The notes under the pieces are model-generated. The model was not told the DNA's origin and made no database searches. It saw only the letters and a list, made by a program, of their open reading frames with translations. This document shows, in pieces, positions 33,165 to 53,916 of a stretch of DNA of 64,000 nt. This DNA comes from Candidatus Poriferihabitaceae bacterium (GTDB lineage Bacteria; Pseudomonadota; Gammaproteobacteria; Arenicellales; Poriferihabitantaceae): the NCBI GenBank assembly GCA_965203265.1, contig CBDBBV010000002.1, positions 1,554,773 to 1,618,772 on the forward strand, in the 5' to 3' direction. Both the position numbers and the translations under genes were made by a program. The number at the start of each line of letters is the position of its first letter. The stretch's first letter is position 1.

Positions 33165-34217
33165 ATGAAAGAAACACTGACCATCACTCGCCCCGACGAT
33201 TGGCATGTACATCTGCGTCAGGACGAACTGTTAGCCCACGTGGTCGCGCACACCGCCGAGAGATTTGCCCGCGCCATGGTCATGCCGAACCTGTCGCCGC
33301 CCGTGGTCAGCACCGCTCGGGCGCTCGACTATCGCGCCGAGATTATGGCAGCCGCGCCGGTGGAAGCCGGATTCAACCCGCTGTTGTCTCTCTACTTGAC
33401 CGACAACACTCCCCCCCGCGAGGTGCGCGAGGCGGCGGCGCAGCCGGCCATCGTCGGCTTCAAACTCTATCCGGCCGGCGCCACCACCAACTCGGATTCC
33501 GGAGTGACCAGAATCAGCCGCATCATGCCGGTGCTGGAGGCCATGGCGGAATGGGGCTTGGTGCTGCAGGTGCATGGGGAAGTAACCGATCCGCAGGTGG
33601 ATGTGTTCGACCGCGAGGCGGTGTTCATCGAGCAGGTGCTCATCCCCCTGCAGCGGGAGCTGCCGAACCTGAAAATCATCCTTGAGCATGTAACCACCGA
33701 ACAGGGCGTGCAGTTCGTCAAGCAGGCCGGGGGCAATGTGGCGGCGACCATAACGCCGCACCACCTACTGTTCAATCGCAACGAGATTTTTCGCGGCGGG
33801 ATTCGCCCGCACGCCCATTGTCTGCCGGTGCTCAAGCGCGAACGGCATCGGCTGGCGCTGCTCGAGGCCGCCACTTGCGGCGATCCATCGTTCTTCCTCG
33901 GCACCGACAGCGCCCCCCATACCCGAAACGCCAAGGAAAGCGCGTGCGGCTGCGCCGGCATCTATTCCGCCCACGGCGCCATGGAACTGTATGCCGAGGT
34001 GTTCGAGGGGATGGGCGCGCTCGACAAACTCGAAGGGTTTGCCAGCCATTACGGCGCCGATTTCTACGGCCTTGCGCGCAATTCGGGGAAATTGACTCTG
34101 GAGAAAAATGCTTGGCGGGTGGCGCCCGCCTATCCGGCCGGGGGCGGCGATGAAATCGTTCCCCTGCGCGCCGGAGAGACGATCCCCTGGTCGATAGCGG
34201 CAGTCGATTACCGATAG
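33165..34217 (+). CDS. pyrC: dihydroorotase (class II, homodimeric type)
   Basis: [29 protein letters not shown] and GTDSAPH motifs. Confidence 0.9.
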
Positions 34218-36196
34218 CCCGACTGATAGGCGGCGTTCGGGTTCTCGAGGGTCTGCCGATCGATGGCCACATCCGCGTTTTGCCGTATGGTCTGGCGCAA
34301 CTGCCGGTACAAACCGTCGCCGTCGCGCGCCAGCAGCTGTTGCCGCAAGGCGGAACGTTCGGCCTCGTCAACGCTTTCCACATCCCCCGGTATCACAGAT
34401 TCGAGGGCGTACACCGCGTAGTCGCCATTGCTCAGAGAAACGCCGCCGTACACGGTCGCGCCGTCCGCCGGAGCGGCTTGAGCGAAAACCGCTTCACCCA
34501 GTTCCGCCAGTTCCGCCGGCACTTCATCGCGCGTTTCGGCGAGGGGTTGGGACTCGAGTTGCCGAGCGGCCAGCAGCCCGGCCCAATCGCCCTGCTCTCC
34601 CTGCTCTCCCTGCTCTCCCTGCTCTCCCTGCTCGGCATTCAAGTCGGCCACCAGCTGCTCGCCCAACTGCCGCGCCCGCTGGCTTGACTGTTGCAGTTTC
34701 AGGTTTTGCTCGATGGCGTCGCGGACGCTCTCGAACGGTTGCGGACGGGCTTCCTCATAGTCGGCCTTGTGGACCGCCACCAGATGGTCGAAGCCGAGTT
34801 CGATGGCGGCGCTGTTCAAGTCCTCCTCGAGCACATCCTCGCTGAACGCCGCGCGCCGCACCGCGGCTTCGTCGGCCACCCCCTCGCCGGCGTCTGCGGT
34901 AAACCAGTCGGTCTGCTTGATTTCCAGCCCGAGATCATCGGCGGCGACGGCGAGGCTGTCGGGGTTCTCGAATACCCGATTCTCGAATGTCTCGCCCAGT
35001 TCGGAGAACAGATTTTCGGCGTGGGCGCGCCGCACCGCCTCGGCGACTTCCTCGCGTACCTCATCCAGCGGCTGTTGCTGCTCCTCGCGCAATTCCGTCA
35101 ACTTGATGATGTGGTAGCCGAAACGGGTTTCGATGGGGCCGCGAATTTCGTCCTCGACCATGTCGAATACCGCTTCCTCGAAGGGCGCGACCATCTGCCC
35201 GCGAGTGACCACGCCGAGGTCTCCGCCGTTCTCCTTGGAGCCCGGATCGTCGGAATGGCGCTGCGCCAGATCGGCGAAATCCGCGTCCTCGACGCGAGAT
35301 TCGGCCAGCACCGTTTCCGCCTCGGCCCGCACTTCATCACGCTCGGCTTGTTCGGCGTCGGCGTCGACGGCGAACAGGATATGGCTTGCCCGGCGGGTTT
35401 CCGCCTGTTTGTAGCGCTCGCGGTTTTGCCTATAGGAATCCTGAATTTCAGATTCCGACGGCTCGACGCCGCGCGCCAGATCGTCCACGGCGAGCTCGAT
35501 GTAGTCCACCTTGATGCGAGCCGGCGACTGATAGCGAGACAGGTTGTCCTGATAATACTGCTCCACGGCGGCGTCATCGATGTCGATTTCCGCATCGAAA
35601 CGACTGGTCGGCACGATCACATAGTCGGTCGTGCGCGTTTGCGCTTGCAGTTGCAACAGCCGCTCCACCTCCCATTCGCTCACGAATGCCGAGTCGGTTA
35701 CCGCCGAGGACAGCAGTTCGATGACGGCGATTTGCCGCTCGGCGGTCTCATATGCCTGCGGCGTGAAACCGTTGCGCCGCAACAGATCCCGGTACAGCTC
35801 GGCATCGAATTGCCCGTCGCGGAAAAATATCTCGGTGGATTGGATGCGCTGGCGTAGCCGTTCATCGGACAGATGGTAATCGCGCTCGCGCACATACTGG
35901 CCCATGAGGCGGCTCGCGATCATCGATTCGACCACCCGATTGCGCATTTCGGCGCTCTCCAGTAGCGACGAATCGATGGCGCCGTCCGATTGCTGCAGTA
36001 GCGCCTGACGCTGCCGAGACAGCTCGTTCTGATAGGCGTACAGCGGGATTTTTTCGCCGTTGACCGTAGCCACGGGGATGTCGGCGGGATTGCCGAAATA
36101 GGACTGGATTCCCCACAGCGCGAACGGGATGGAGATGAGGATGACGACCACCCAGGCCAGTCCGCCGGTTGCCTGTTCGCGGATTTTGGTCAGCAT
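34208..36196 (-). CDS. ppiD: periplasmic chaperone / peptidyl-prolyl isomerase PpiD (SurA N-terminal domain plus parvulin domain)
   Basis: N-terminal TM anchor [25 protein letters not shown] and a parvulin core ([30 protein letters not shown]...GYHIIKL). The conserved position is downstream of hupB and the tRNAs. Confidence 0.85.
34591..34633. repeat. in-frame 9-bp tandem repeat (CCTGCTCTC, 4.8 copies) inside ppiD, encoding (EQG)n
   Basis: Read directly. The protein shows [16 protein letters not shown]. Confidence 0.9.
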
Positions 36197-36316: not shown

Positions 36317-36393
36317 TGGCGGAGCGGACGGGGCTCGAACCCGCGACCCCCGGCGTGACAGGCCGGTATTCTAACCAACTGAACTACCGCTCC
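36317..36393 (-). tRNA. tRNA-Asp (GTC)
   Basis: The reverse complement GGAGCGGTAGTTCAGTTGGTTAGAATACCGGCCTGTCACGCCGGGGGTCGCGGGTTCGAGCCCCGTCCGCTCCGCCA is nearly identical to E. coli tRNA-Asp. Confidence 0.95.
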
Positions 36394-36401
36394 TGAGATG
36401 A

Positions 36402-36477
36402 TGGTGGGCGCTGCAGGGCTCGAACCTGCGACTTTCGCCTTGTAAGGGCGACGCTCTCCCAGCTGAGCTAAGCGCCC
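36402..36477 (-). tRNA. tRNA-Val (TAC)
   Basis: The reverse complement GGGCGCTTAGCTCAGCTGGGAGAGCGTCGCCCTTACAAGGCGAAAGTCGCAGGTTCGAGCCCTGCAGCGCCCACCA has the anticodon loop CTTACAA. Confidence 0.95.
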
Positions 36478-37169: not shown

Positions 37170-39590
37170 CTAGTGGGCGATTACATTGGCGCCGCTTTCT
37201 GCCTTCTTCCTGCGCCGGGGTTTTGCCGCCGCCTTGCTGGATTTGGCGTTGGCGCTAGGTGTTTTCTCCAGAGCCAATTCGAGCACCTCGTCGATCCACT
37301 TCACCGGCTTTATCTGCAATTCGCGGCGAATTTTTTCCGGAATCTCCCGCAATTCGCGGGAATTTTCAAATGGGATCAGCGCCGTTTTCAGGCCGGCGCG
37401 ATGCGCCGCGAGCAATTTTTCCTTGAGGCCGCCGATGGGCAGCACCTCGCCGCGCAGGGTGATTTCTCCGGTCATGGCAACATTCGACCACGCCGGAATG
37501 CCGGTCAGGGCGGAGATGATGGCGACGCACATGCCGATGCCGGCGCTGGGGCCGTCCTTGGGCGTCGCCCCTTCGGGAACATGGATGTGGATATCCCGAT
37601 TCTGGTGGAACTGGGCGTCGATGCCCCACTGCACGCTGCGGCTGCGCACCACGCTGATGGCCGCGGTGATGGATTCCTGCATGACATTGCCGAGTTTGCC
37701 GGTGTACAGGTGCTTGCCCTTGCCCGGCATGACCACGGCCTCTATGGTCAGCAACTCGCCGCCCACCTCGGTCCACGCCAGCCCGGTTACCTGACCGACC
37801 TTGTTCTCCTGCTCGATGCCGTTGCGGCGGTATCGCTTGACGCCGAGGTATCTTTCCAGACTGGCCTGCGTGATGTTGGCTCGCTTCTTGCGCTTGTTGA
37901 GGAGGAATTCCTTCACCACCTTGCGGAAGATTTTCGCGATCTCCCGCTCCAGACTGCGCACTCCGGCCTCGCGCGTCCAAGACGCGATGATCTCGCGGAT
38001 GGCTTGGCTGCTGATGCGAACCTCGGTTTTCTTCAGGCCGTTGTTGGCGCGCTGTTTCGGCAGCAGATAGCGGTTGGCGATCTCGCATTTTTCCTCCTCG
38101 GTATAGCCGGAAATGCGGATGACCTCCATGCGGTCGAGCAGTGGACTAGGTATGTTGAGGGTGTTGGCCGTGGCGATGAACATGACATCGGACAGGTCAT
38201 AATCGACCTCCAGATAGTGATCGCCGAATGTATGGTTCTGCTCCGGATCGAGCACCTCCAGCAGCGCCGAGGACGGGTCGCCGCGAAAATCCATGGACAT
38301 CTTGTCCACTTCGTCGAGCATGAAGAGCGGGTTGCGCGTCTTGCCCTTGGCCAGATTCTGGATGATCTTGCCCGGCATCGAGCCGATATAGGTGCGCCGA
38401 TGCCCGCGAATTTCCGCCTCGTCGCGCACGCCGCCGAGCGGCATTCGCAGGAATTTGCGGTTGGTGGCGCGCGCGATGGACTGCCCCAGAGAGGTCTTGC
38501 CCACGCCGGGCGGGCCCACCAGACAGAGGATCGCCGCCTTCGACTTCCGCACCCGCTGCTGCACCGCCAGATATTCGAGAATCCGCTCCTTGACCTTTTC
38601 CAGCCCGTAGTGATCCTCATCCAGTATCTTCTGCGCCTTCACCAAGTTCTTGGAGATGCGACTGCGCTGTTTCCACGGCGCCGCCAGCAGCCAGTCGATG
38701 TAATTGCGCACCACGGTCGCTTCCGCCGACATGGGCGACATCATCTTCAATTTTTTCAGCTCGCCCTCGGCTTTCCCCCGCGCCTCGTCCGACATGCCGG
38801 AATCGGCAATTCTGGCGGTAAGTTCGTCGATCTCGTTGGGAATATCGTCCATCTCTCCCAATTCCTTCTGGATCGCCTTCATCTGCTCGTTCAGGTAGTA
38901 CTCCCGCTGGCTCTTTTCCATCTGCTTCTTGACGCGGCTGCGAATGCGCTTTTCCACCTGCAGCAGGTCGATCTCCGATTCCATGACGCCGAGAATGTGC
39001 TCCAAGCGCGCCGTGGCGTCGATCAGTTCGAGAATTTTCTGCTTGGCATCGTTCTTCAGGTTGAGGTGGGCGGCGATGGCGTCGCCGATGCGGCCGGGCT
39101 TGTCGATGCCGGCGAGGGAGGTGAGAATCTCCGGCGGTATCTTGGGATTCAGTTTGACATATTTCTCGAATTCGGCGGCCACGGCGCGCATCAGCACGTC
39201 CGATTCCCGCGTGGAAATATGCACATCGTCGACCACTTCCGCCTCGCAGGTGAAGCCCTCCTCCTCGTCCTGCGGGCTGTGAGTGAATCGGGCGATGAGC
39301 GCCCGCCGCTTGCCCTCCACCAGCACCTTGACGGTGCCGTCCGGCATCTTCAGCAGCTGCAGGATGGAGGCGACGGTGCCCACCCGGTAGATATCGTCCG
39401 GCGTGGGCGAATCCTGCAGCGCGTCCTTCTGCGCCACCAGCAGGATGTTGCGTCCGCTCGTCATGGCCATATCCAGCGCCTTGATCGAGCGCGTCCGCCC
39501 GACGAACAGCGGGATCACCATATGGGGGAAAACCACCACATCGCGCAACGGCAATACCGGCAGGTCGGTTTCGATCAGGGGGTCGGACAT
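37170..39590 (-). CDS. lon: ATP-dependent protease Lon
   Basis: 806 aa with Walker [10 protein letters not shown], the proteolytic site PKDGPSAG and a LON N-domain. Confidence 0.97.
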
Positions 39591-39644
39591 GGGCGGAAGT
39601 TCAGAGGATGAGACTGGGCAGTCGGCCGCTCGGCCGGATGAGCG

Positions 39645-40934
39645 TCAGGAGGAAGCTCCGGCGGTCAATTTCGCCTTGGCTTCCTGATAGACATACAAGG
39701 GTCGCGAGCCCTCGACGATGACCGACTCGTCGACGATCACCTTCTTGATTCCCGCGATGGACGGCAGTTCGTACATGGTTTCCAGCAGGGCATTTTCGAG
39801 AATCGAGCGCAGGCCGCGCGCGCCGGCCTTTCGTTCCATCGCCTTTTTGGCGATCTGGCGCAGCGCTTCGGGGCGGAATTCCAGTTCGACCCCCTCCAGT
39901 TTGAACAATTTGGCGTATTGCTTGGTGAGGGCGTTGCGCGGCTCGGTGAGAATGCGAATGAGCGCCAACTCGTCCAACTCCTCCAGAGTCGCGACCACCG
40001 GCAGGCGGCCGATGAATTCGGGGATCAAGCCGTATTTGATCAGATCTTCGGGTTCCAGTTCCTGCAGCAGTTCGTTGGCGCGCTCACCGGCGGTTTTTTC
40101 CCGAATATCGGCGCCGAAGCCGATGCCGGATTTTTCCGTGCGCCCCTGAATGACCTTTTCCAGCCCGGCGAAGGCGCCGCCGCAGATGAACAGGATATTG
40201 CGCGTGTCCACCTGCAGAAATTCCTGCTGGGGATGCTTGCGCCCTCCCTGAGGCGGGATGGAGGCGACGGTGCCCTCGACCAGCTTCAACAGCGCCTGCT
40301 GCACCCCCTCGCCGGAAACGTCCCGAGTAATGGAGGGGTTGTCGGATTTCCGCGAAATCTTGTCGATCTCATCCACATAGACGATGCCCTGCTGGGCTTT
40401 TTCGATGTTGTAGTCGCAGGTTTGCAGCAGTTTCTGGATGATGTTCTCGACATCCTCGCCCACATAACCGGCCTCGGTCAGGGTGGTGGCGTCGGCGATG
40501 GTGAAGGGAACATCGAGCTGCTTCGCCAACGTTTCCGCCAACAGGGTCTTGCCCGAGCCGGTGGGGCCGATGAGCAGGATATTGCTCTTGGAAATATCCA
40601 CCTCGCCGACCGCCTGTTCGTTTTCGATGCGCTTGTAGTGGTTGTAAACCGCCACCGAGAGGGTCTTCTTGGCGACCTGTTGGCCGATGACATAATCCTC
40701 CAGGAAATTGTGAATTTCCGGCGGAGTGGGGAATCTCTTGGCGTCCCCCTGAGCATTCGCGCCGGCGCCGTTGCCGCCTTCATTGCGGATGATTTCGTTG
40801 CACAGCTCGACGCATTCGTCGCAGATGTACACGGACGGGCCGGCGATCAGCTTGCCCACATCGTGCTGACTCTTGCCGCAGAACGAGCAATACAGCAGTT
40901 TGTCTCCCAACTTTACGGGTGGATTTTCAGGCAT
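39645..40934 (-). CDS. clpX: ATP-dependent Clp protease ATP-binding subunit ClpX
   Basis: Zinc-binding CSFCGK...CDEC and Walker [12 protein letters not shown]. Confidence 0.97.
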
Positions 40935-41016
40935 CAGGGAAGTACATGATTGCGTAACATAACGCGAGATTGCAGGGTTTTCCGGCTTTTTTCAACCCCT
41001 TTTCATTACACGGATG

Positions 41017-41643
41017 TCATAACCGAGTGCTCAGCACCGAGTCGATGATGCCGTATTCGGCGGCCTCGGCGGCGCTCAGAAAATAGTCGCGATCGGTGTC
41101 CTGACGGATTCGCTTGAGGGTTTGGCCGGTGTGCTCGACGAATATCCGATTGAGGCGCTCGCGCGCTTGGAGAATTTCGCGGGTATGGATTTCGATGTCG
41201 GAAGCCTGCCCCTGAGAGCCGCCCAGAGGCTGGTGAATCATCACTCTGGAATGCGGCAGGGCATGACGTTTTTTCGGCGTCCCGCCAGCCAGAATGACCG
41301 CGCCCATGCTGGCGGCCTGACCGATGCACACGGTGCTCACATCGGGGCGGATGAACTGCATGGTGTCGTAGATGGCGAGCCCCGCCGAGACCACTCCGCC
41401 GGGGCTGTTGATGTACAGGGAGATGTCCTTCTCCGGATTTTCCGATTCGAGAAAGAGCAACTGGGCGACGATGAGATTGGCCATCTGATCCTCGCACTGC
41501 CCCACCAGAAACACCACCCGCTCCTTGAGCAGCCGGGAATAGATGTCAAATGCGCGCTCGCCGCGGCCGGTGGTCTCGATCACCATGGGGACCAAATTCA
41601 GGTTTTTCGGGCGGGTGGCGCCGGAATGTTCGTTGTTTTGCAT
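41017..41643 (-). CDS. clpP: ATP-dependent Clp protease proteolytic subunit ClpP
   Basis: Start at the internal ATG 41643 (MQNNEHSG...). Motifs [23 protein letters not shown] and GQAASMGA (catalytic Ser). Confidence 0.95.
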
Positions 41644-41729
41644 GTCGTTCAACCGATGATCACGCTCGCCGGGACGGGCATGGATGGAAAGGAAAATAGC
41701 GAAAAGGAAAAAGCGGCGGCTCGGCCGTA

Positions 41730-43031
41730 TCACTCGCCCGCGGGATTCATGAATTCCTGAAATGATACCTTCTTTTCGGTAACGGCGGCGGTTTCGAGCA
41801 TGCGATCGACCACCTGTTCCTCCAGCATCATCGCTTCGATTCGGCGCAATCTGGCGGGTTCGGAATAATGCCAGTTGATCCAGGCCGCGCTGTCATCGTA
41901 GTCGGCGGCCATTTCCTCGATCCTGCGACGCAGATCGGCGCTATCCACCTTCAGGTCGAATTTTTCCATGATCTCGCGGGCGACCAAGCCGATCAGCACC
42001 TGTCGCTTGGCGTCGGCGGCGAAATGCTCGCGCTTGATCTGCTGTTTCGCCATCCCCTGCGCCGCCATTTGCTGCTCGACTGCCTTCATGCGCCGCTCGA
42101 TTTCCGCTTCGATGAGCGCCGTGGGCACCTCGATTTCATTGGCCTTCACCAGCTCGTCCATGACCCGATCGCGCAGCACGGCGCGCATTCGCGTGTCCAA
42201 TTCGCGCTGCAGGTTGACCTCGATCTCCGCGCGCATCTTCTCCATGCCGCCCTCGGCAACCCCCAGTTTGCGTGCGAACGCCTCGTCGCACTCCGGCAAC
42301 ACCCGCCGCTCCACCGCCTTCACCACCACCTCGAACGACGCCGCCTTGCCGGCCACCTCGCTACCGGAATATCTATCTGGAAAGGTGAAGGCGACCTGCT
42401 TGGCGGCACCGGCCTCGAGGCCGAGCAACTCGTTCTCGAAGGGATCAAGCATATCCCCTTCCCCCAGCACCAACCGATGGTTTTCGGCGGATCCGCCGGC
42501 GAAGGGACGGCCGTCGATTGTGCCGTCGAAGTCGATGGTAATCCGATCTCCCTTTTCCGATTTTCCCTCCTTGGCGACAAAATCCGCGTGTTGCTTGCGG
42601 ATGTTCAGCAAGGTTCGCTCCACATCCTCGGCGGTTACGGCGCAGCGCGGCTTTTCGATGGTTCTGCCGGCCAGCGTGGGGGAGGGGATGGGTGGATACA
42701 GTTCGACCGTGGCGATGTAGCGAAGATCGTCCCCCGGCGCAAACGGCTTGGGTTCGATGGACAGCAAACCGGCCGGTTCGATGGCCTCCTTGCCGAGCGC
42801 TTCCCGATAGCTGGTGTTGATGGTGTCGCTGACCACCTCGTCGGTTACCTGCGCGCCGTATCTCTTATCGACGATGCCGCGAGGAGCCTTGCCCGGGCGG
42901 AAACCGGGGATGCGCGCCCGTCTGGCCAGAGCGCGCAGGCGCTTTTCGATTTCCCGCTCGACCTCGGCGTGCGGCACGGAAACCGTGATCCTGCGCTCGA
43001 TGGCGCCGGATTCTTCAACCGTTACTTGCAT
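41730..43031 (-). CDS. tig: trigger factor
   Basis: [20 protein letters not shown]...PGFRPGKAP is the ribosome-binding signature. The tig-clpP-clpX-lon order is conserved. Confidence 0.95.
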
Positions 43032-43083: not shown

Positions 43084-43170
<87 letters not shown>

Positions 43171-43200
43171 TACCTCGTCTTGCCGTCCACCGCGAATTGC

Positions 43201-43276
<76 letters not shown>

Positions 43277-43309
43277 TGACCGCGCCTCGCGCGCAAAATT
43301 GGGGTGAAC

Positions 43310-43386
43310 GATGGGACTCGAACCCACGACGGCCGGAATCACAATCCGGGGCTCTACCAACTGAGCTACGTTCACCATAATTTCAT
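43310..43386 (-). tRNA. tRNA-His (GTG)
   Basis: The reverse complement GGTGAACGTAGCTCAGTTGGTAGAGCCCCGGATTGTGATTCCGG...TCACCCCA has the extra 5' G typical of tRNA-His. Confidence 0.9.
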
Positions 43387-43430
43387 TCATCCGGCCTGCG
43401 CCCGCACATATAAGCTTTCATGGCGCGCCC

Positions 43431-43507
43431 GACAGGATTCGAACCTGTAACCTACGGCTTAGAAGGCCGTTGCTCTATCCGATTGGGCTACGGGCGCAAA
43501 GATTGAA
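43431..43507 (-). tRNA. tRNA-Arg (TCT)
   Basis: The reverse complement GCGCCCGTAGCCCAATCGGATAGAGCAACGGCCTTCTAAGCCGTAGGTTACAGGTTCGAATCCTGTCGGGCGCGCCA. Confidence 0.9.
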
Positions 43508-43530
43508 AATTTTACAAAACTGGTCGGGGT

Positions 43531-43607
43531 AGAGAGATTTGAACTCCCGACATCCTGCTCCCAAAGCAGGCGCGCTACCAGACTGCGCTATACCCCGCTT
43601 TTCGCCG
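43531..43607 (-). tRNA. tRNA-Pro (TGG)
   Basis: The reverse complement CGGGGTATAGCGCAGTCTGGTAGCGCGCCTGCTTTGGGAGCAGGATGTCGGGAGTTCAAATCTCTCTACCCCGACCA. Confidence 0.9.
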
Positions 43608-49162: not shown

Positions 49163-52100
49163 TCAGAAACGCGCCTCTCCCTTCAATAAAATCGCATGGT
49201 CGGCATCCGCGCGCTCGTTCCCATGCTCGCGGCGTTCTCCGTGCAGGCGCAGGGTGAATTGCCCGCCGGAAGACCAATCCAACCCTATGCGGTACAGTTT
49301 GCCGTTGTCTTGCAGGGTCAAACCGCTCCACGGGGTCAGCAAGCCGTCTCGCTCGCCGGGGGTGGACAGGCCGTAGCCCAGATTCATTTCCAGTCGTCCG
49401 CTGGGGTCGTGAGTGGTCGGGGTGGTTTCGCGTAGGCCGTTCGACCAGATTTGGCCGGTGTTGCCGTCCCCGCCGTGATTGCCGTAGCCGGGGCTCATTT
49501 CGAAGGACAGGCCGTGACCGCCTGCGCTGGGGGATAGGCGTAGGGAGGCTTGTATTCCCCATTCCTCGTAGTCGCTGCGGCCTAACAGGGTGTGTGCCGA
49601 GGTTTCGGCGTTCCAGCCGGTTTTCGGGTTGGCGTAGCGCACGCTGCCGTGGAATTCCGCGCCGGTGCTGGTGTTGCCGTCTACGCCGTCTCCGCCGTCG
49701 TGGCGTAGGCCGAGGGAGATGGAGGGCGATAGGTGGCCGCCGCCGCTCAAGTGGCGGCTACTGCTCGCTTCGGCGGCGAATCGAATCAGGGTGGTTTCCA
49801 CTGTCATGGCGGCAACTTGGGCGGTTTTTTCCACCTCCAAGTCGGTGCGCGCGATTTCCCCCTTGAGGCGCACACTGGCGTCATCGCGCGACCACAACAG
49901 GCCGCTGCCGCCCAGACTCACGGATTGCAGGGTTACATCGTTGGATGACGATTCGCCGTCTTGCGGTGTGATTTCCACTTCGCCGGTGCCGTAGCCGGCG
50001 GTGGCCCACCAGTGGCGTTGACCCGAACGCCAGCCGAAGTAGGGGTGGATGGCAAGTAAGTCGATTTCGTAGTCGCCCTTGCTGACTCCGCTTGCGCCGC
50101 CGCTTTCGCTAGTGTCCTCGTATTCCAGTTCGCCCTCACTCCACGACAAGGCCACGCCCGCCAGCAGGTTTTCGCGCACCTTGTGATCCACGCCGATTTG
50201 CGCGCCGTACAAACTGCCGTCGAAGTCCACGCCGTCATTCTCGCCGGACAGATTGCGGTATTCGCCGCTGCCCCACAGGGAGGTTTTACGCAGGCCGCCG
50301 CCCTCTTCTCTGGTGTGGAACGGCAGAACGAAATCGGAGCCGTCCAGCAAGTCGCGCAGGGGGATGTTGTCGTTGACCAAACCCGGCGCATGGGTTTGCA
50401 AGACGCCCGCGAGGGAACTCTGCCCGCCGAGACTGGCCGAGACACCACCGCTCCCGCTCCCATTCAATGCCCGCCCCACTCGCGTGGAAATGGCGCCGGT
50501 TACCCGACTGGCCACGGCGCGCGCCACTTCGGGCAGGGCGGTTTCATGCAATCTCTCCGACTGTATCTGCGACACGATTGTCAGCACGAGGGCGCGCTCG
50601 GTGCGCAAAGACGGGTTGGTGCTTGTGGCGGAGATGGTGATGGTTTCGCCGTCGTCGTCCACCTCATCGGCGATGGTGGTTAGCGTAACCGTCTCGCTAT
50701 GGCGGCCTGCGGCAATGGTGAAGGTCTTGGTGGTGAGGGAATAATCGACGCCCTCGGTGGCCGCCGTGTTGCCGCTTGCGTCGATGGTCAGCGTTACCAC
50801 ACTGCCGCCGGACGGTGCTGGGCGGTTCAGCGTTGCCGTAACCACGGATTCGCGGCCTTCGGGGATGTCCGTGGGGCTGGCGGCGAGGGTCAGGGTGGTC
50901 GGTATGGCCGCTCTGGTTATGCTTACTCGGTAGTTCGTGGTACTGCCGTCCTCGGCGGTTACCTCGACCACAATGGCGTTGCCCCCCTCGGCGAGGGAAA
51001 TGGCGCTGCTGTCCGAGCCGCTGTTCACCGCCGTCAGGCTGCCGCTCTTGCCGACCTTGATGGAAGCGGCATTGTGCGCCGTGGTAGGCGTCAATATCGC
51101 ATGGGTAACCTCGTTGCCCACCGGAGCCCGATAGGCCGTGGTGGAGGCCGAGAAAGAGGGCGTCAGGGCGAGGGTGGTGAAAGTGCTGCCGTCTGTGCTG
51201 CTTTTGGCGGTTAGGGCGCTCAGATCAGCGTTGTCGGATTGGCCGCTTCCCGATGGCGCCGCTCTGGTTATGCTCACCGTGTAGGTGTTCTTGGCGCCGC
51301 CCGATGCGGTTACCTCGACCAAGATGGGGTTGGCGCCCACAGAGAGGGGGATGGCGCTGCTGTCAACGCCGCTCGCCACTGAGTTGAGGTTGCCGCTCTT
51401 GCCGACTCGTATGGTGGCGCCGCTTTGTGCCGCGGTGGGGGTCAGTATCAAGTGGGTAACGGCGTTGGTCACCGAGGCCGAGTAGGCGGTGGTGGTGTGG
51501 GAGAAGGTTGCCGGGTTGAGGGCGAGGGCGGTGAAGGGGCCTGCCGAACTGGTGGCGCGCTGGGCAGTCAAGGCGGTCAAATCGGTCGGTGCCGGTTTGT
51601 CGTCATCGGTGATGGTGATGGCAACCGAGTTGTCGGTGCCGGCGGTTACCGAGGAAGGCAGGGTGCCGAGGGCGACTGTGAGGGTTTCGTCCTGTTCGTC
51701 GGTGTCTTGGTTGGTGGAAAGCGAGCCGGTGGCGGAGGTTTGGCCGCTTGAGATGGTGATGGCGGCTAGGCTGCCGATGTCGGCGGCTTCGGCGCTGCCT
51801 CGGGTGATGGTCAGCGGGATGCGCACATTGGAAGTCAGCGCCGCCGAGAGGGTTGCGGTGATGGTTACGGAGGAACCTTCGGGAACCGGATTGGGGGCGG
51901 CGGAGAGGTTGACAGTGGGGGTGGTTGCTGTTGGGCAGGATGAGCCGATGCTCAGGGAGATGGTGTTGCCGGTGGCCCAGGGTAGGTTGGCGTTGGGCCA
52001 AGCAATAAAGATTCCCGCGGCACCCGATAAGGAAAACTCGGTCGAGCCCACACAGAATTTCAATGCTTTGAGGGCAGTATTCGGTAAAGCATTGATAAGA

Positions 52101-52582
52101 ATATTCAATTGACCGCTTCTAGTCCCAGAATTGTTGTCGTATATGCCCGTAAAATGATAATTCGTGCCGCCAACCGTGAAACTGTTGTTCGTCAACTTGG
52201 AGTCGCAGTCCGATTTAAGGTTGCAACCCAAAAGCTCTGTGTTCACCGTTCCCACCGTAAACGTCGCCGACCACACGGTGGTGGTCTGAGCGGAAGCGGG
52301 AACAGCCAGCAGGGAGAACACGCCCGCCAACAAGACGATGACAAGGCGGCGGATGGATGATTTCCGCCCAACTTTCGAGGAATGAACTTGGCGGAAAAAC
52401 GGCAGGCGTACAGAGCGGCTCGCCGAGTCGAATGTTAGCTTAGAAGGGGGGGGGGGGGGGGGGGGGGGGGGGATTATGTTCAGATCGGCATTCACATTCG
52501 CACCAGCGGCGAGAACGGCCGAGGCGGTGCGGGCGTGGGTGGCGGCAGTGGTGGATCGGATGATTCGGGTATGGATGTTCAT
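49163..52582 (-). CDS. autotransporter outer-membrane protein with Calx-beta and cadherin-like passenger repeats
   Basis: Strong SD (GGAGGAA, 7 nt, ATG at 52582). The hydrophobic signal segment is LVIVLLAGVFSLLAVPASA. The passenger has two Calx-beta-like and two cadherin-like beta-sandwich repeats. The C-terminal beta-barrel of about 300 aa has alternating aromatic residues and ends in ...LLKGEARF. Confidence 0.8.
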   Translation of the reverse strand: MNIHTRIIRSTTAATHARTASAVLAAGANVNADLNIIPPPPPPPPPSKLTFDSASRSVRLPFFRQVHSSKVGRKSSIRRLVIVLLAGVFSLLAVPASAQTTTVWSATFTVGTVNTELLGCNLKSDCDSKLTNNSFTVGGTNYHFTGIYDNNSGTRSGQLNILINALPNTALKALKFCVGSTEFSLSGAAGIFIAWPNANLPWATGNTISLSIGSSCPTATTPTVNLSAAPNPVPEGSSVTITATLSAALTSNVRIPLTITRGSAEAADIGSLAAITISSGQTSATGSLSTNQDTDEQDETLTVALGTLPSSVTAGTDNSVAITITDDDKPAPTDLTALTAQRATSSAGPFTALALNPATFSHTTTAYSASVTNAVTHLILTPTAAQSGATIRVGKSGNLNSVASGVDSSAIPLSVGANPILVEVTASGGAKNTYTVSITRAAPSGSGQSDNADLSALTAKSSTDGSTFTTLALTPSFSASTTAYRAPVGNEVTHAILTPTTAHNAASIKVGKSGSLTAVNSGSDSSAISLAEGGNAIVVEVTAEDGSTTNYRVSITRAAIPTTLTLAASPTDIPEGRESVVTATLNRPAPSGGSVVTLTIDASGNTAATEGVDYSLTTKTFTIAAGRHSETVTLTTIADEVDDDGETITISATSTNPSLRTERALVLTIVSQIQSERLHETALPEVARAVASRVTGAISTRVGRALNGSGSGGVSASLGGQSSLAGVLQTHAPGLVNDNIPLRDLLDGSDFVLPFHTREEGGGLRKTSLWGSGEYRNLSGENDGVDFDGSLYGAQIGVDHKVRENLLAGVALSWSEGELEYEDTSESGGASGVSKGDYEIDLLAIHPYFGWRSGQRHWWATAGYGTGEVEITPQDGESSSNDVTLQSVSLGGSGLLWSRDDASVRLKGEIARTDLEVEKTAQVAAMTVETTLIRFAAEASSSRHLSGGGHLSPSISLGLRHDGGDGVDGNTSTGAEFHGSVRYANPKTGWNAETSAHTLLGRSDYEEWGIQASLRLSPSAGGHGLSFEMSPGYGNHGGDGNTGQIWSNGLRETTPTTHDPSGRLEMNLGYGLSTPGERDGLLTPWSGLTLQDNGKLYRIGLDWSSGGQFTLRLHGERREHGNERADADHAILLKGEARF
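52446..52472. repeat. 27-nt homopolymer (G27 on plus, C27 in the coding sense) inside the autotransporter 5' coding region
   Basis: Counted directly. The run of G spans 52446-52472 and encodes nine consecutive prolines at codons 37-45. Confidence 0.95.
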
Positions 52583-52773
52583 GGTTTCATTCCTCCAAGT
52601 GGATTGCGGCGGCCGGATGACTCGGCGGTCAATTTCACGGTGAAGGGGCAGATTATAACCATTTTGCGCAGATTGGCAACCCCTTGTACGATGCCAATAC
52701 ATTCCGCCTCCGGATGGTTTTCCGCGATGAGCCGCGCCGCCTCGGTTGATCGCAGGCGCCGTCGGTAGCCAAA

Positions 52774-53916
52774 TCAGCGGTAGCCGGTCATTTCGAGATA
52801 CCCCCGGCCGATCACCCGCCCCGCCTCGCGCACCACCACCATGCCCTCCCAATAGCGCACGGCGAGGGCCATTTCCTGAGCGTCGAGTACCGCCTCCACC
52901 CGCCAGCGGCGCTTCAGGGGTGCGATTTCCAGCTCCCACGCCACCGGGTAGTCGACGCCGCCGGAGTTGCGCCACCAGCGTAGCGGGGTGAGGGCGACAT
53001 CGCCCGCGCGCAGGGTTTCGGGCGGCAAATCGGCGAAGCGGATGCTGCCGGCGCTGTGGGGGTCGGTGTGGCCGGCGTGGTCGCGCAGTCGGTAGAACAT
53101 GAGGTCGACGCCGTCTTGCAGTTGCAGGGCGAACCAGTCCCATCCGGCCTGCTGCGGCGCCAATGCGCTGCTGCTCCATTCGCGGTCGAACCACGATAAA
53201 CCGGATACCGCTTGCGCCTGCCCACCGCCGAGGCGCAGGGTGCCGTGGGTGGCGAGGCGGCTGATGGAGTAGTAGTAGGAGGCGTTGCCGGATTCGGCGC
53301 TCTTGCGGCTGAGGCCGTCTTCGCCCTGCAGAGTCGGCGGCACTTGCGGCCTCAGAGTCAGGTCCAGGTCGAAATCATCGGTGCGCGCGCGCAGGCGCCA
53401 CGGGCAACCGGCGCAGGGCGCGGCTACTTGCCAATCGCCCAGCCACAGTTTGAACGGCGATGGAGGCGAGGCGGCGCCGGCCAGCCCCATCGCTTCGCGG
53501 GCGAAACGTTCGTGGGCGAAGTGTTGCCGCCGGTGGGGGTCGGTCAGGGCGACATGCGCCATCCACACCTGATGCGCCGCCCAGCGGGAAGGACGCCCGC
53601 GAATCGCCGTGGCCGGAGGCGTCAGGGCAATGCGGAAGAAGGTCGCCTGAAAGCCGTAACGCTGCCCTTCCTCGGTGGCCACATTGCCGTTGAAATGCCA
53701 CCATTCGTTGCGGAAGCCGTCATGGGGGGCGTGATCTCGCGGGAAGGCGAAGTCCCGCGGCTTTTCGGCACGGAGAAAGGCCGGATGCACGCTGCCGCCG
53801 AGAGCCTGCTGCAACGGCACCGACGGCGGCTGATCGTCCGGCGAACAGGCCGCCAGTAGGCATATCAGCGCCACGCAGGCGGCGGAGGCGGAGGCGGGCA
53901 GGCGCATGGCGGTCAT
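52774..53916 (-). CDS. lipocalin-like / carotenoid 1,2-hydratase (CrtC, AttH-like) lipoprotein
   Basis: Lipobox LICLLAAC. Motifs HDGFRNEWWHFNGNV...GFQATFFR. The start ATG at 53916 overlaps the upstream permease stop (ATGA). Confidence 0.75.
   Translation of the reverse strand: MTAMRLPASASAACVALICLLAACSPDDQPPSVPLQQALGGSVHPAFLRAEKPRDFAFPRDHAPHDGFRNEWWHFNGNVATEEGQRYGFQATFFRIALTPPATAIRGRPSRWAAHQVWMAHVALTDPHRRQHFAHERFAREAMGLAGAASPPSPFKLWLGDWQVAAPCAGCPWRLRARTDDFDLDLTLRPQVPPTLQGEDGLSRKSAESGNASYYYSISRLATHGTLRLGGGQAQAVSGLSWFDREWSSSALAPQQAGWDWFALQLQDGVDLMFYRLRDHAGHTDPHSAGSIRFADLPPETLRAGDVALTPLRWWRNSGGVDYPVAWELEIAPLKRRWRVEAVLDAQEMALAVRYWEGMVVVREAGRVIGRGYLEMTGYR

Follow-up and report, generated by a model that had tools for sequence, protein, structure and literature searches.

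That homopolymers switch adhesin and autotransporter genes is textbook knowledge for a few human pathogens. The tracts of nalP and ausI measure around ten bases, Neisseria pilC carries poly-G in its signal-peptide region, the multi-copy opa genes of Neisseria, most copies of which are OFF, have CTCTT repeats in the region coding for the signal peptide, and in Haemophilus influenzae 7-bp repeats lie upstream of the adhesin genes hmw1A and hmw2A. The meningococcal genes nalP and ausI encode autotransporters and hold their poly-C tracts within the coding region, while the AAGC repeats of autA and autB, also from Neisseria, lie just after the start codon (PMC5472700). More recently, a homopolymer switch was shown in a gut commensal, Bifidobacterium breve, in which a G-tract joins the two open reading frames (ORFs) of sortase-dependent pilus genes (bbr_0113a/b and bbr_1889a/b); the second ORF is without an active start, and the two are out of frame in the reference genome and in frame in only a fraction of the population (PMC9187656). 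Here we analyse a stretch of 64,000 nucleotides (nt) from a Candidatus Poriferihabitaceae bacterium (contig CBDBBV010000002.1, positions 1,554,773 to 1,618,772; hereafter the window), in which a run of 27 C lies in the translated leader of a gene for a secreted autotransporter. We consider it probable, at roughly 70%, that this C27 tract is a hypermutable slipped-strand ON/OFF switch, a reading that is strongly supported by comparison with relatives and only indirectly at the window locus itself. The kind of mechanism is known; what is new is the layout of leader ORF, repeat and signal peptide, the very long tracts and the spread across phyla of sponge symbionts.

Read on the plus strand, the tract is a perfect run of 27 G, and it is the only homopolymer of at least 8 nt in the window, the next longest runs being 7. 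With a G fraction of about 0.31, the number of G or C runs of at least 27 expected by chance in 64 kb is about 2e-9, and a Tandem Repeats Finder scan of the window reported the tract and nothing comparable. It lies in frame inside a long minus-strand ORF (49163..53194). Counted from the A of the leader ATG (52582-52580), which is preceded by a Shine-Dalgarno (SD) sequence, the first C stands at 110 nt; 36 leader codons precede the ATC whose last base opens the tract, and the codons across it are ATC, eight CCC and CCT, i.e., isoleucine followed by nine prolines. The two other frames end in TAA stops 6 and 11 nt past the tract. A further 37 codons separate the end of the tract from the hydrophobic core of the signal peptide, and this interval holds no in-frame ATG, GTG or TTG, the first such codons being a TTG TTG pair inside the core. 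Contingency loci are characterised by a repeat whose unit is not a multiple of 3 nt near the 5' end of the translated region, found here at codons 37-46, and by truncation of the product when the repeat number changes, which TAA in both frames and the lack of a downstream start would bring about. The sole sigma-70-like promoter match in the region lies ~70 nt upstream of the leader ATG (one found, 0.2 expected in shuffles) and thus upstream of both SD and ATG, which places C27 within a transcribed and translated leader and not in a promoter spacer. A promoter-spacer switch of the Bordetella fim or Neisseria porA/opc type was considered as a candidate and rejected, as the tract is found ~180 nt downstream of this match (52679-52652), in the leader ORF. 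An earlier note on this DNA had claimed a perfect 27-G run, in frame at this length, that must be read through for want of any later start before the core and that would truncate the protein upon any change of one or two bases; direct reading bore out each of these points, as well as the SD and the ATG at 52582, and moved the distance from ATG to tract from 108 nt to 110 nt.

The encoded protein is composed, in order, of the leader, nine prolines, the signal peptide, an N-terminal domain, two Cadherin-like stretches, a Calx-beta segment and an autotransporter beta-domain. The last of these (PF03797, aa 769-995, roughly 49598-50278) scores 37.1 bits in Pfam against a cut-off of 26, in agreement with the description of the gene as an autotransporter in the earlier note, and represents the C-terminal beta-barrel translocator by which type Va autotransporters are defined. 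The better of the Cadherin-like stretches covers aa 351-440, and the Calx-beta match (aa 566-656) is sub-threshold. The C-terminus reads ...GEARF, and an aromatic last residue is typical of autotransporters. A beta-barrel domain implies that the bacterium has an outer membrane, and the sources of related genes suggest that it lives in association with sponges. The signal peptide consists of a positively charged RKSSIRR, the core LVIVLLAGVFSLLAV and a predicted cleavage site PASA/QTTTVWSATFTV (the slash marks cleavage), placed after ASA by alignment with homologues ending PAQAQ/TT; this putative Sec signal peptide is canonical in its three regions (ending ASA/Q), yet it starts ~72 residues from the start codon. 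The N-terminal domain that follows has ~115 aa, two conserved Cys and the mature end TTVWSATLTV (TT(V/L)WSATLTV in the family). No Pfam model covers the domain; its AlphaFold (AF2) model, with a predicted local distance difference test score of 87, is all-beta, and a structure search with this model gave no PDB match at E <= 0.001. Its DNA has a GC content of 42-58% versus 62-68% around it in the window, which hints at acquisition from a lower-GC donor. The Pfam scan gave no match to ESPR (PF13018) at E <= 0.01, and the leader sequence is unrelated to ESPR and is not conserved even within the gene family. No paralogue of the gene was found inside the window by tblastn. EF-P is needed at PPP motifs, and the nine consecutive prolines (Pro38-Pro46, in frame) exceed the three that define an EF-P stall site, making EF-P dependence of translation through the tract plausible; as CCC is read in every frame, OFF alleles would encode poly-proline too.

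Features of the autotransporter locus in the window (ORF coordinates are those of the window; aa, amino acids)
Feature	Coordinates	Strand	Basis or remark
Whole coding sequence, 1139 aa from ATG 52582	49163..52582	-	ORF intact, all domains
Sigma-70-like promoter match TTGCCA-16 nt-TATAAT, 11/12	52652..52679	-	consensus match only
Shine-Dalgarno GGAGGAA, 7 nt before ATG	52590..52596	-	read directly
Leader: ATG 52582 plus 35 codons (MNIHTRIIRSTTAATHARTASAVLAAGANVNADLNI) plus first two bases of ATC	52473..52582	-	
C27 homopolymer: last base of Ile37, then Pro38-Pro46	52446..52472	-	
Two TAA stops, 52442-52440 and 52437-52435, one per non-coding frame	52435..52442	-	
Linker: last base of the CCT proline codon plus 26 codons (SKLTFDSASRSVRLPFFRQVHSSKVG)	52367..52445	-	
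Signal-peptide coding region (RKSSIRRLVIVLLAGVFSLLAVPASA)	52289..52366	-	sequence features and alignment
N-terminal passenger domain (QTTTVWSATFTV...LSIGSSC)	51935..52288	-	family hallmark
Mature N-terminal peptide sequences: QTTTVWSATFTVGTVNTELLGCNLK			

Several smaller elements surround the tract. The hexamer ATAATC (52474-52479), formed by the Ile-Ile codons ATA ATC that are rare in this 61% GC genome, stands directly before C27, and a nearly identical GTATAATC or TATAATT stands directly before the 7-mer repeats of four distant relatives (L027, L041, L051 and L059); it may be a shared -10-like element or the remnant of a common leader. A 3-codon mini-ORF, ATG AAA CCA TGA (52579-52590), whose ATG abuts the SD, overlaps the leader ATG as ATGA and is probably unused. 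A further in-frame ATG at 52700-52702 (GGAGG-CGGA-ATG), 40 codons ahead of ATG 52582 and also ahead of the predicted promoter, could lengthen the leader given another promoter. Folding of the window leader revealed no RNA structure beyond that of shuffles (z = 0.06), and Rfam and tRNA scans found no RNA family at the tract, the seven tRNAs all lying elsewhere.

According to the explanation that we favour, translation would start at ATG 52582, with its strong SD and a good promoter match upstream, and ribosomes would have to cross C27 to reach the sole signal peptide. With 3n C's the leader would be fused in frame to the signal peptide and the precursor exported, after which signal peptidase would remove leader, poly-proline and signal peptide together; the tract would therefore be absent from the mature protein and in-frame changes in its length would cost nothing. 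With 3n+1 or 3n-1 C's, a TAA would be met within 11 nt and only a peptide of ~50 aa would be made. Slipped-strand mispairing in replication would change the tract length at high frequency, and the outcome would be heritable, reversible ON/OFF switching of a surface protein. We infer that switching does take place at the window locus, that a signal peptide is functional behind an N-terminal extension of ~80 aa, and that selection is exerted by a host, which to judge from the relatives would be a sponge, or by phages.

With the first 361 residues as query, a protein search returned only 12 matches. In their alignment the signal peptide and the mature N-terminus TT(V/L)WSATLTV are conserved, and several of the called homologues begin at an odd place within the hydrophobic core of the signal peptide. 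A profile of the N-terminal domain matched 2,231 representative clusters at E <= 1e-3; many members of the family are giant multi-domain proteins, and several full sequences have an autotransporter-like end (e.g., ...RSLIRW). We collected 80 loci encoding the domain, 63 from genomes (pattern scan, one genome per species) and 17 from metagenomes. Nearly all of those with a lineage label come from metagenome-assembled genomes of sponge symbionts, belonging to Dehalococcoidia, Dadabacteria, Thermodesulfobacteriota, Spirochaetia, Alpha- and Gammaproteobacteria, Ca. Poriferisodalis, Latescibacterota, Nitrospirales, Gemmatimonadota, Acidobacteria and Binatia. In 29 of the 80 loci a poly-C run of at least 8, always C on the sense strand and ranging from C8 to C60, separates an SD+ATG leader ORF from the signal peptide: 19 of the 63 genome loci have one of C8 to C32 that lies 76-136 nt before the domain match, and 10 of the 17 metagenome loci have C8, C9, C11, C27 or compound tracts up to C60. 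Over 360 kb of loci, sense-strand runs of at least 8 number 42 for C versus 3 for G, and almost every C run closely precedes a signal peptide, that of a family member or of a diverged one and in one case that of an unrelated FN3-like protein. In this case (L042:4298-4310), a second tract, C13, has its own short leader ORF (MRHLPRITLN) and stands before the signal peptide of an FN3-like secreted protein, which indicates that the module of leader and poly-C is not confined to one protein family.

Nearly all tracts follow an SD+ATG leader ORF of ~10-25 codons, shorter than that of the window, and the leaders of relatives differ by synonymous changes, e.g., TTG, CTG or CTC for Leu in RRLLRAAM. In the five loci L001-L005, the SD+ATG opens a 17-codon ORF that runs into C10 and is closed by a TGA 9-11 nt past the tract; the signal peptide is encoded in a different frame that has no start codon of its own. 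It is such breaks of frame at the tract, seen in the DNA, that account for the odd called starts inside the hydrophobic core; in L004, likewise of the start-less type, the sole downstream ATG lies inside this core. The start-less layout of the window recurs in L012, L013, L015, L017, L022, L024, L025, L026 and L067. An own-start layout, in which the main ORF has an SD and ATG, is found in L009, L018, L023, L033, L037, L076-L078 and L090; in L009, for example, the leader ORF, of 29 aa, contains C10 and stops shortly ahead of the main gene. Whichever the layout, the main frame stays open once past the tract, while the other two close fast; the later off-frame stop falls a median of 39 nt beyond the tract, against 184 nt for positions drawn at random from these genes, and only 7% of such background positions close as quickly. 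Fused, in-frame (ON) forms occur among the called proteins as P0075 (MFDFGSDSNRVRRLLKAATPVTPPPPNLRS...signal peptide) and P0122. When the window leader region was compared with all loci by blastn, the tract and the TTVWSAT region were the only matches. In thirteen loci (L012, L015, L017, L018, L025, L045, L067, L075-L078, L083 and L090) a conserved motif, GAACCTACGTTCTAG, directly follows the tract; its palindromic core GAAC-N4-GTTC resembles the Gram-positive LexA (Cheo) box and supplies an off-frame TAG stop.

Tract length differs between close relatives: L009 has C10 and L037 C16 between flanks that are 97% and 95% identical, and L067 has C13 and L073 C14 between flanks that are 98% and 99% identical. 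Seventeen loci without poly-C (L027, L041, L047, L049-L051, L057, L059, L060, L062, L063, L065, L069, L085, L086, L089 and L035) have another simple repeat at the same place, bringing the loci with a repeat to 46 of 80. These alternative repeats sit ~100-300 nt upstream of the domain match, before the signal peptide, and comprise heptanucleotides (twelve loci, 5-30 copies), a pentanucleotide, GAGCC, in two paralogues (25 and 31 copies), the dinucleotide GA (x15) and the octanucleotide CCCAGCGG, which has 8 copies in L085 and 4 in L086, two assemblies of one locus; none of these units has a length divisible by 3. In many of these loci a TATAAT-like hexamer stands directly before the repeat, and a conserved start, MTCARREAG or MRCARREAG, comes after it. 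Repeat number is polymorphic among relatives with conserved flanks (L009/L037, L067/L073, L085/L086), and different repeat types at one position, in one family across phyla, are, as judged by sequence comparison, the comparative signature of contingency loci. The slipped-strand ON/OFF switch put forward in the earlier note is supported by these length differences between near-identical flanks, by the layout in the 29 loci and by the other repeats in 17. The most extreme tracts are compound, namely C17-ACCCCCG-C17-TCTGGGGG-C31 (L078:988-1067), C60-A-C7-G-C7 (L083:539-614) and C11 A9 followed by C8, C12 and C11 (L084:965-1072); all three come from one hybrid sponge metagenome assembly (MKWU01) and may be real expansions or assembly noise.

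A number of observations weigh against a switch by DNA slippage, and part of them speak for expression being set mainly at the level of RNA or the ribosome. With L006, L008 and L010 left out (long-read contigs at 2-4x that carry frameshifts), an in-frame leader ATG was found for only 3 of 28 distinct tracts, namely those of the window and L076 and one in L033, versus one third expected (binomial P = 0.006, ignoring relatedness); the other 25 stand at offset 1 (about 16) or offset 2 (about 9). Mostly-OFF populations would give such a majority of out-of-frame assemblies, as with the multi-copy opa genes, but so would expression by another route. All five assemblies of L001-L005 share the same out-of-frame C10, so that instability of short tracts is not apparent in consensus sequences. 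A length of exactly C27 is found three times, in the window, in L076 and at a contig end in L045, and may be imposed by the assembler, in which case the 27 of the window would possibly be an assembly value. A signal peptide behind an extension of ~80 residues including nine prolines is unusual, and its function is putative. A plasmid search for the locus, as well as a search of metagenome contigs for its exact flanks with a variable gap, gave no match. Beyond the content of the earlier note are the family-wide occurrence across phyla, the out-of-frame state of most assembled relatives and the recurrence of exactly 27 in two other assemblies.

Expression could instead be set mainly by RNA polymerase slippage on the C/G run or by frameshifting of ribosomes that pause on consecutive CCC codons, with no heritable change in the DNA; a fraction of in-frame product would then arise at any DNA length and the tract would be a constitutive attenuator or a sensor of EF-P or proline-tRNA. 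RNA polymerase is prone to slip on long homopolymers, CCC-C counts among the classic +1 slippery sites, and tRNA-Pro is able to re-pair whatever the frame. A +1 shift would correct offset 1, the commoner of the two offsets among the 25 out-of-frame tracts; the stable out-of-frame C10 points the same way. In the own-start relatives, moreover, the SD and ATG of the main ORF are buried in a hairpin, GGAGGCCC..ATGATG..GGGCCTCC, in which GGAGG(CCC) pairs with main-ORF codons 3-5 (GGGCCUCC). In an alignment of seven such hairpins (L009:1489-1516, L037, L018, L077, L076, L078 and L083), 81% of cells pair versus 32-55% with slid partners, and three pairs are compensatory, which suggests a masked ribosome-binding site (RBS) and own-start genes that also depend on ribosomes arriving from the leader ORF. 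Pairing of poly-C itself with a downstream SD was considered as well and was not borne out by folding, the SD of the relatives pairing with codons 3-5 of the main ORF. On the other hand, the window is in frame and needs no slippage, the 5-, 7- and 8-nt repeats found elsewhere are classic substrates of DNA slippage and not ribosomal slippery sites, and near-identical copies do differ in length. We therefore regard expression governed chiefly by RNA or ribosome slippage as unlikely, while noting that this and DNA slippage are not mutually exclusive.

It is very unlikely that the tract belongs to an untranslated leader or promoter and that its length tunes transcription or mRNA structure, as does poly-C in Bordetella fim promoters, with translation beginning at a non-canonical start such as the ATC of Ile77 (52354-52352) before RRLVIV or a TTG of the core. 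CATAAT stands directly upstream of C27 and a TATAAT-like hexamer before the 7-mers of L027, L041, L051 and L059, a weak GGGCGGA lies 8 nt before ATC 52354, and in the 7-mer and 8-mer lineages the repeat abuts the ATG and may be 5' untranslated region; however, CATAAT has no acceptable -35 and was not called in the promoter scan, ATC is a very poor initiator, and the start-less relatives have no ATN or NTG at the equivalent place. The strong SD+ATG leader ORF is conserved with synonymous changes, and the main frame is open from the tract while the other two close at once. Downstream ATC and CTG codons were tried as starts in their own right and rejected, the start-less relatives having none at the equivalent place. 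Nor does it seem at all likely, if somewhat less remote, that the tract or its length is a sequencing or assembly artefact, or that the gene is a decaying pseudogene with an accidentally expanded homopolymer. Homopolymers of such length are error-prone on all platforms, the repeated C27 among ~30 tracts and the messy compound tracts of the hybrid assembly would fit this explanation, and annotated G-tract lengths can differ from the real population (PMC9187656). Yet the homologous position is occupied by a tract in dozens of assemblies made independently, in different laboratories and on different platforms, which argues that the feature is real; the flanking design of SD, leader and immediate off-frame stops is conserved, and the window ORF is intact, with 1139 codons and all domains.

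The switch by DNA slippage could also be one part of something broader, namely a portable cassette of leader ORF, repeat and signal peptide with control at several levels, which would have spread or arisen repeatedly across unrelated phyla of sponge symbionts (Chloroflexota, Dadabacteria, Thermodesulfobacteriota, Proteobacteria and others) and would control a very large family of surface proteins. DNA slippage would set the frame, and ribosomes pausing on poly-proline, possibly with +1 shifting, would unmask or feed the main ORF; copies that look OFF in assemblies would then be expressed at a tunable low level. We offer this combination tentatively and think it, as a whole, rather doubtful. 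If true, it would be the first system of phase or antigenic variation described for sponge microbiomes and for Chloroflexota. A full-text literature search found no description of homopolymer switches in sponge symbionts or Chloroflexota.

Should the switch be real, symbionts of many phyla would stochastically vary a shared family of surface proteins, which bears on how sponge cells tell symbionts from food and on how the symbionts evade phages, of which a filter feeder carries a heavy load. Annotation of the family is systematically wrong, as gene callers split these genes or misplace their starts and assemblers break the tracts or fix them. Elsewhere in the window, a gene for an AttH/CrtC-type lipocalin protein lies upstream of the autotransporter gene and ends at 52774. 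A perfect 9-nt repeat (CCCTGCTCT x 4.9, 34590-34633) forms an in-frame three-residue repeat in the minus-strand ORF 34208..36196. The tRNA genes form clusters at 36317-36477 (Asp, Val) and 43084-43597 (Leu, Lys, His, Arg, Pro), and the size and order of the ORFs between them (37170-43031) suggest tig-clpP-clpX-lon.

When set beside the described systems, the window shares with NalP and AusI a C homopolymer inside the ORF of a type Va autotransporter, where a slipped-strand frame shift gives ON and OFF states (PMC5472700). It differs from them in tract length (27 here, up to 60 in relatives), in the position of the tract upstream of the signal peptide and behind a dedicated leader start, in having no sequence relationship with them, and in coming from a non-pathogen whose relatives are sponge symbionts of several phyla. 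The closest layout is that of the B. breve pilus genes, in which a surface precursor is likewise split into two ORFs by a homopolymer and which, as with the relatives of the window, belong to a beneficial host-associated bacterium. There, however, the signal peptide is encoded in the first ORF, upstream of the tract, and the tracts are G10-G12 within one genus, whereas here the signal peptide lies downstream, so that an OFF allele would give only a short cytoplasmic peptide, and the arrangement is conserved across phyla. As in opa, pilC, autA and autB, the repeat falls in a part of the precursor that is removed on export, and in-frame length changes would spare the mature protein; unlike in these genes, a separate leader of ~36 codons precedes the tract and 37 codons lie between tract and core. 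The heptanucleotides directly upstream in relatives (L027, L041, L051 and L057-L065, not the window), beside promoter-like hexamers, recall hmw1A and hmw2A, with an unrelated unit sequence. EF-P relieves poly-proline stalling (e.g., in CadC), and stalling leader peptides unmask a downstream RBS in ermC and SecM. The own-start relatives, with a proline-run leader ORF just upstream of a hairpin-masked RBS, may resemble ermC and SecM in this respect; the window has no separate downstream RBS.

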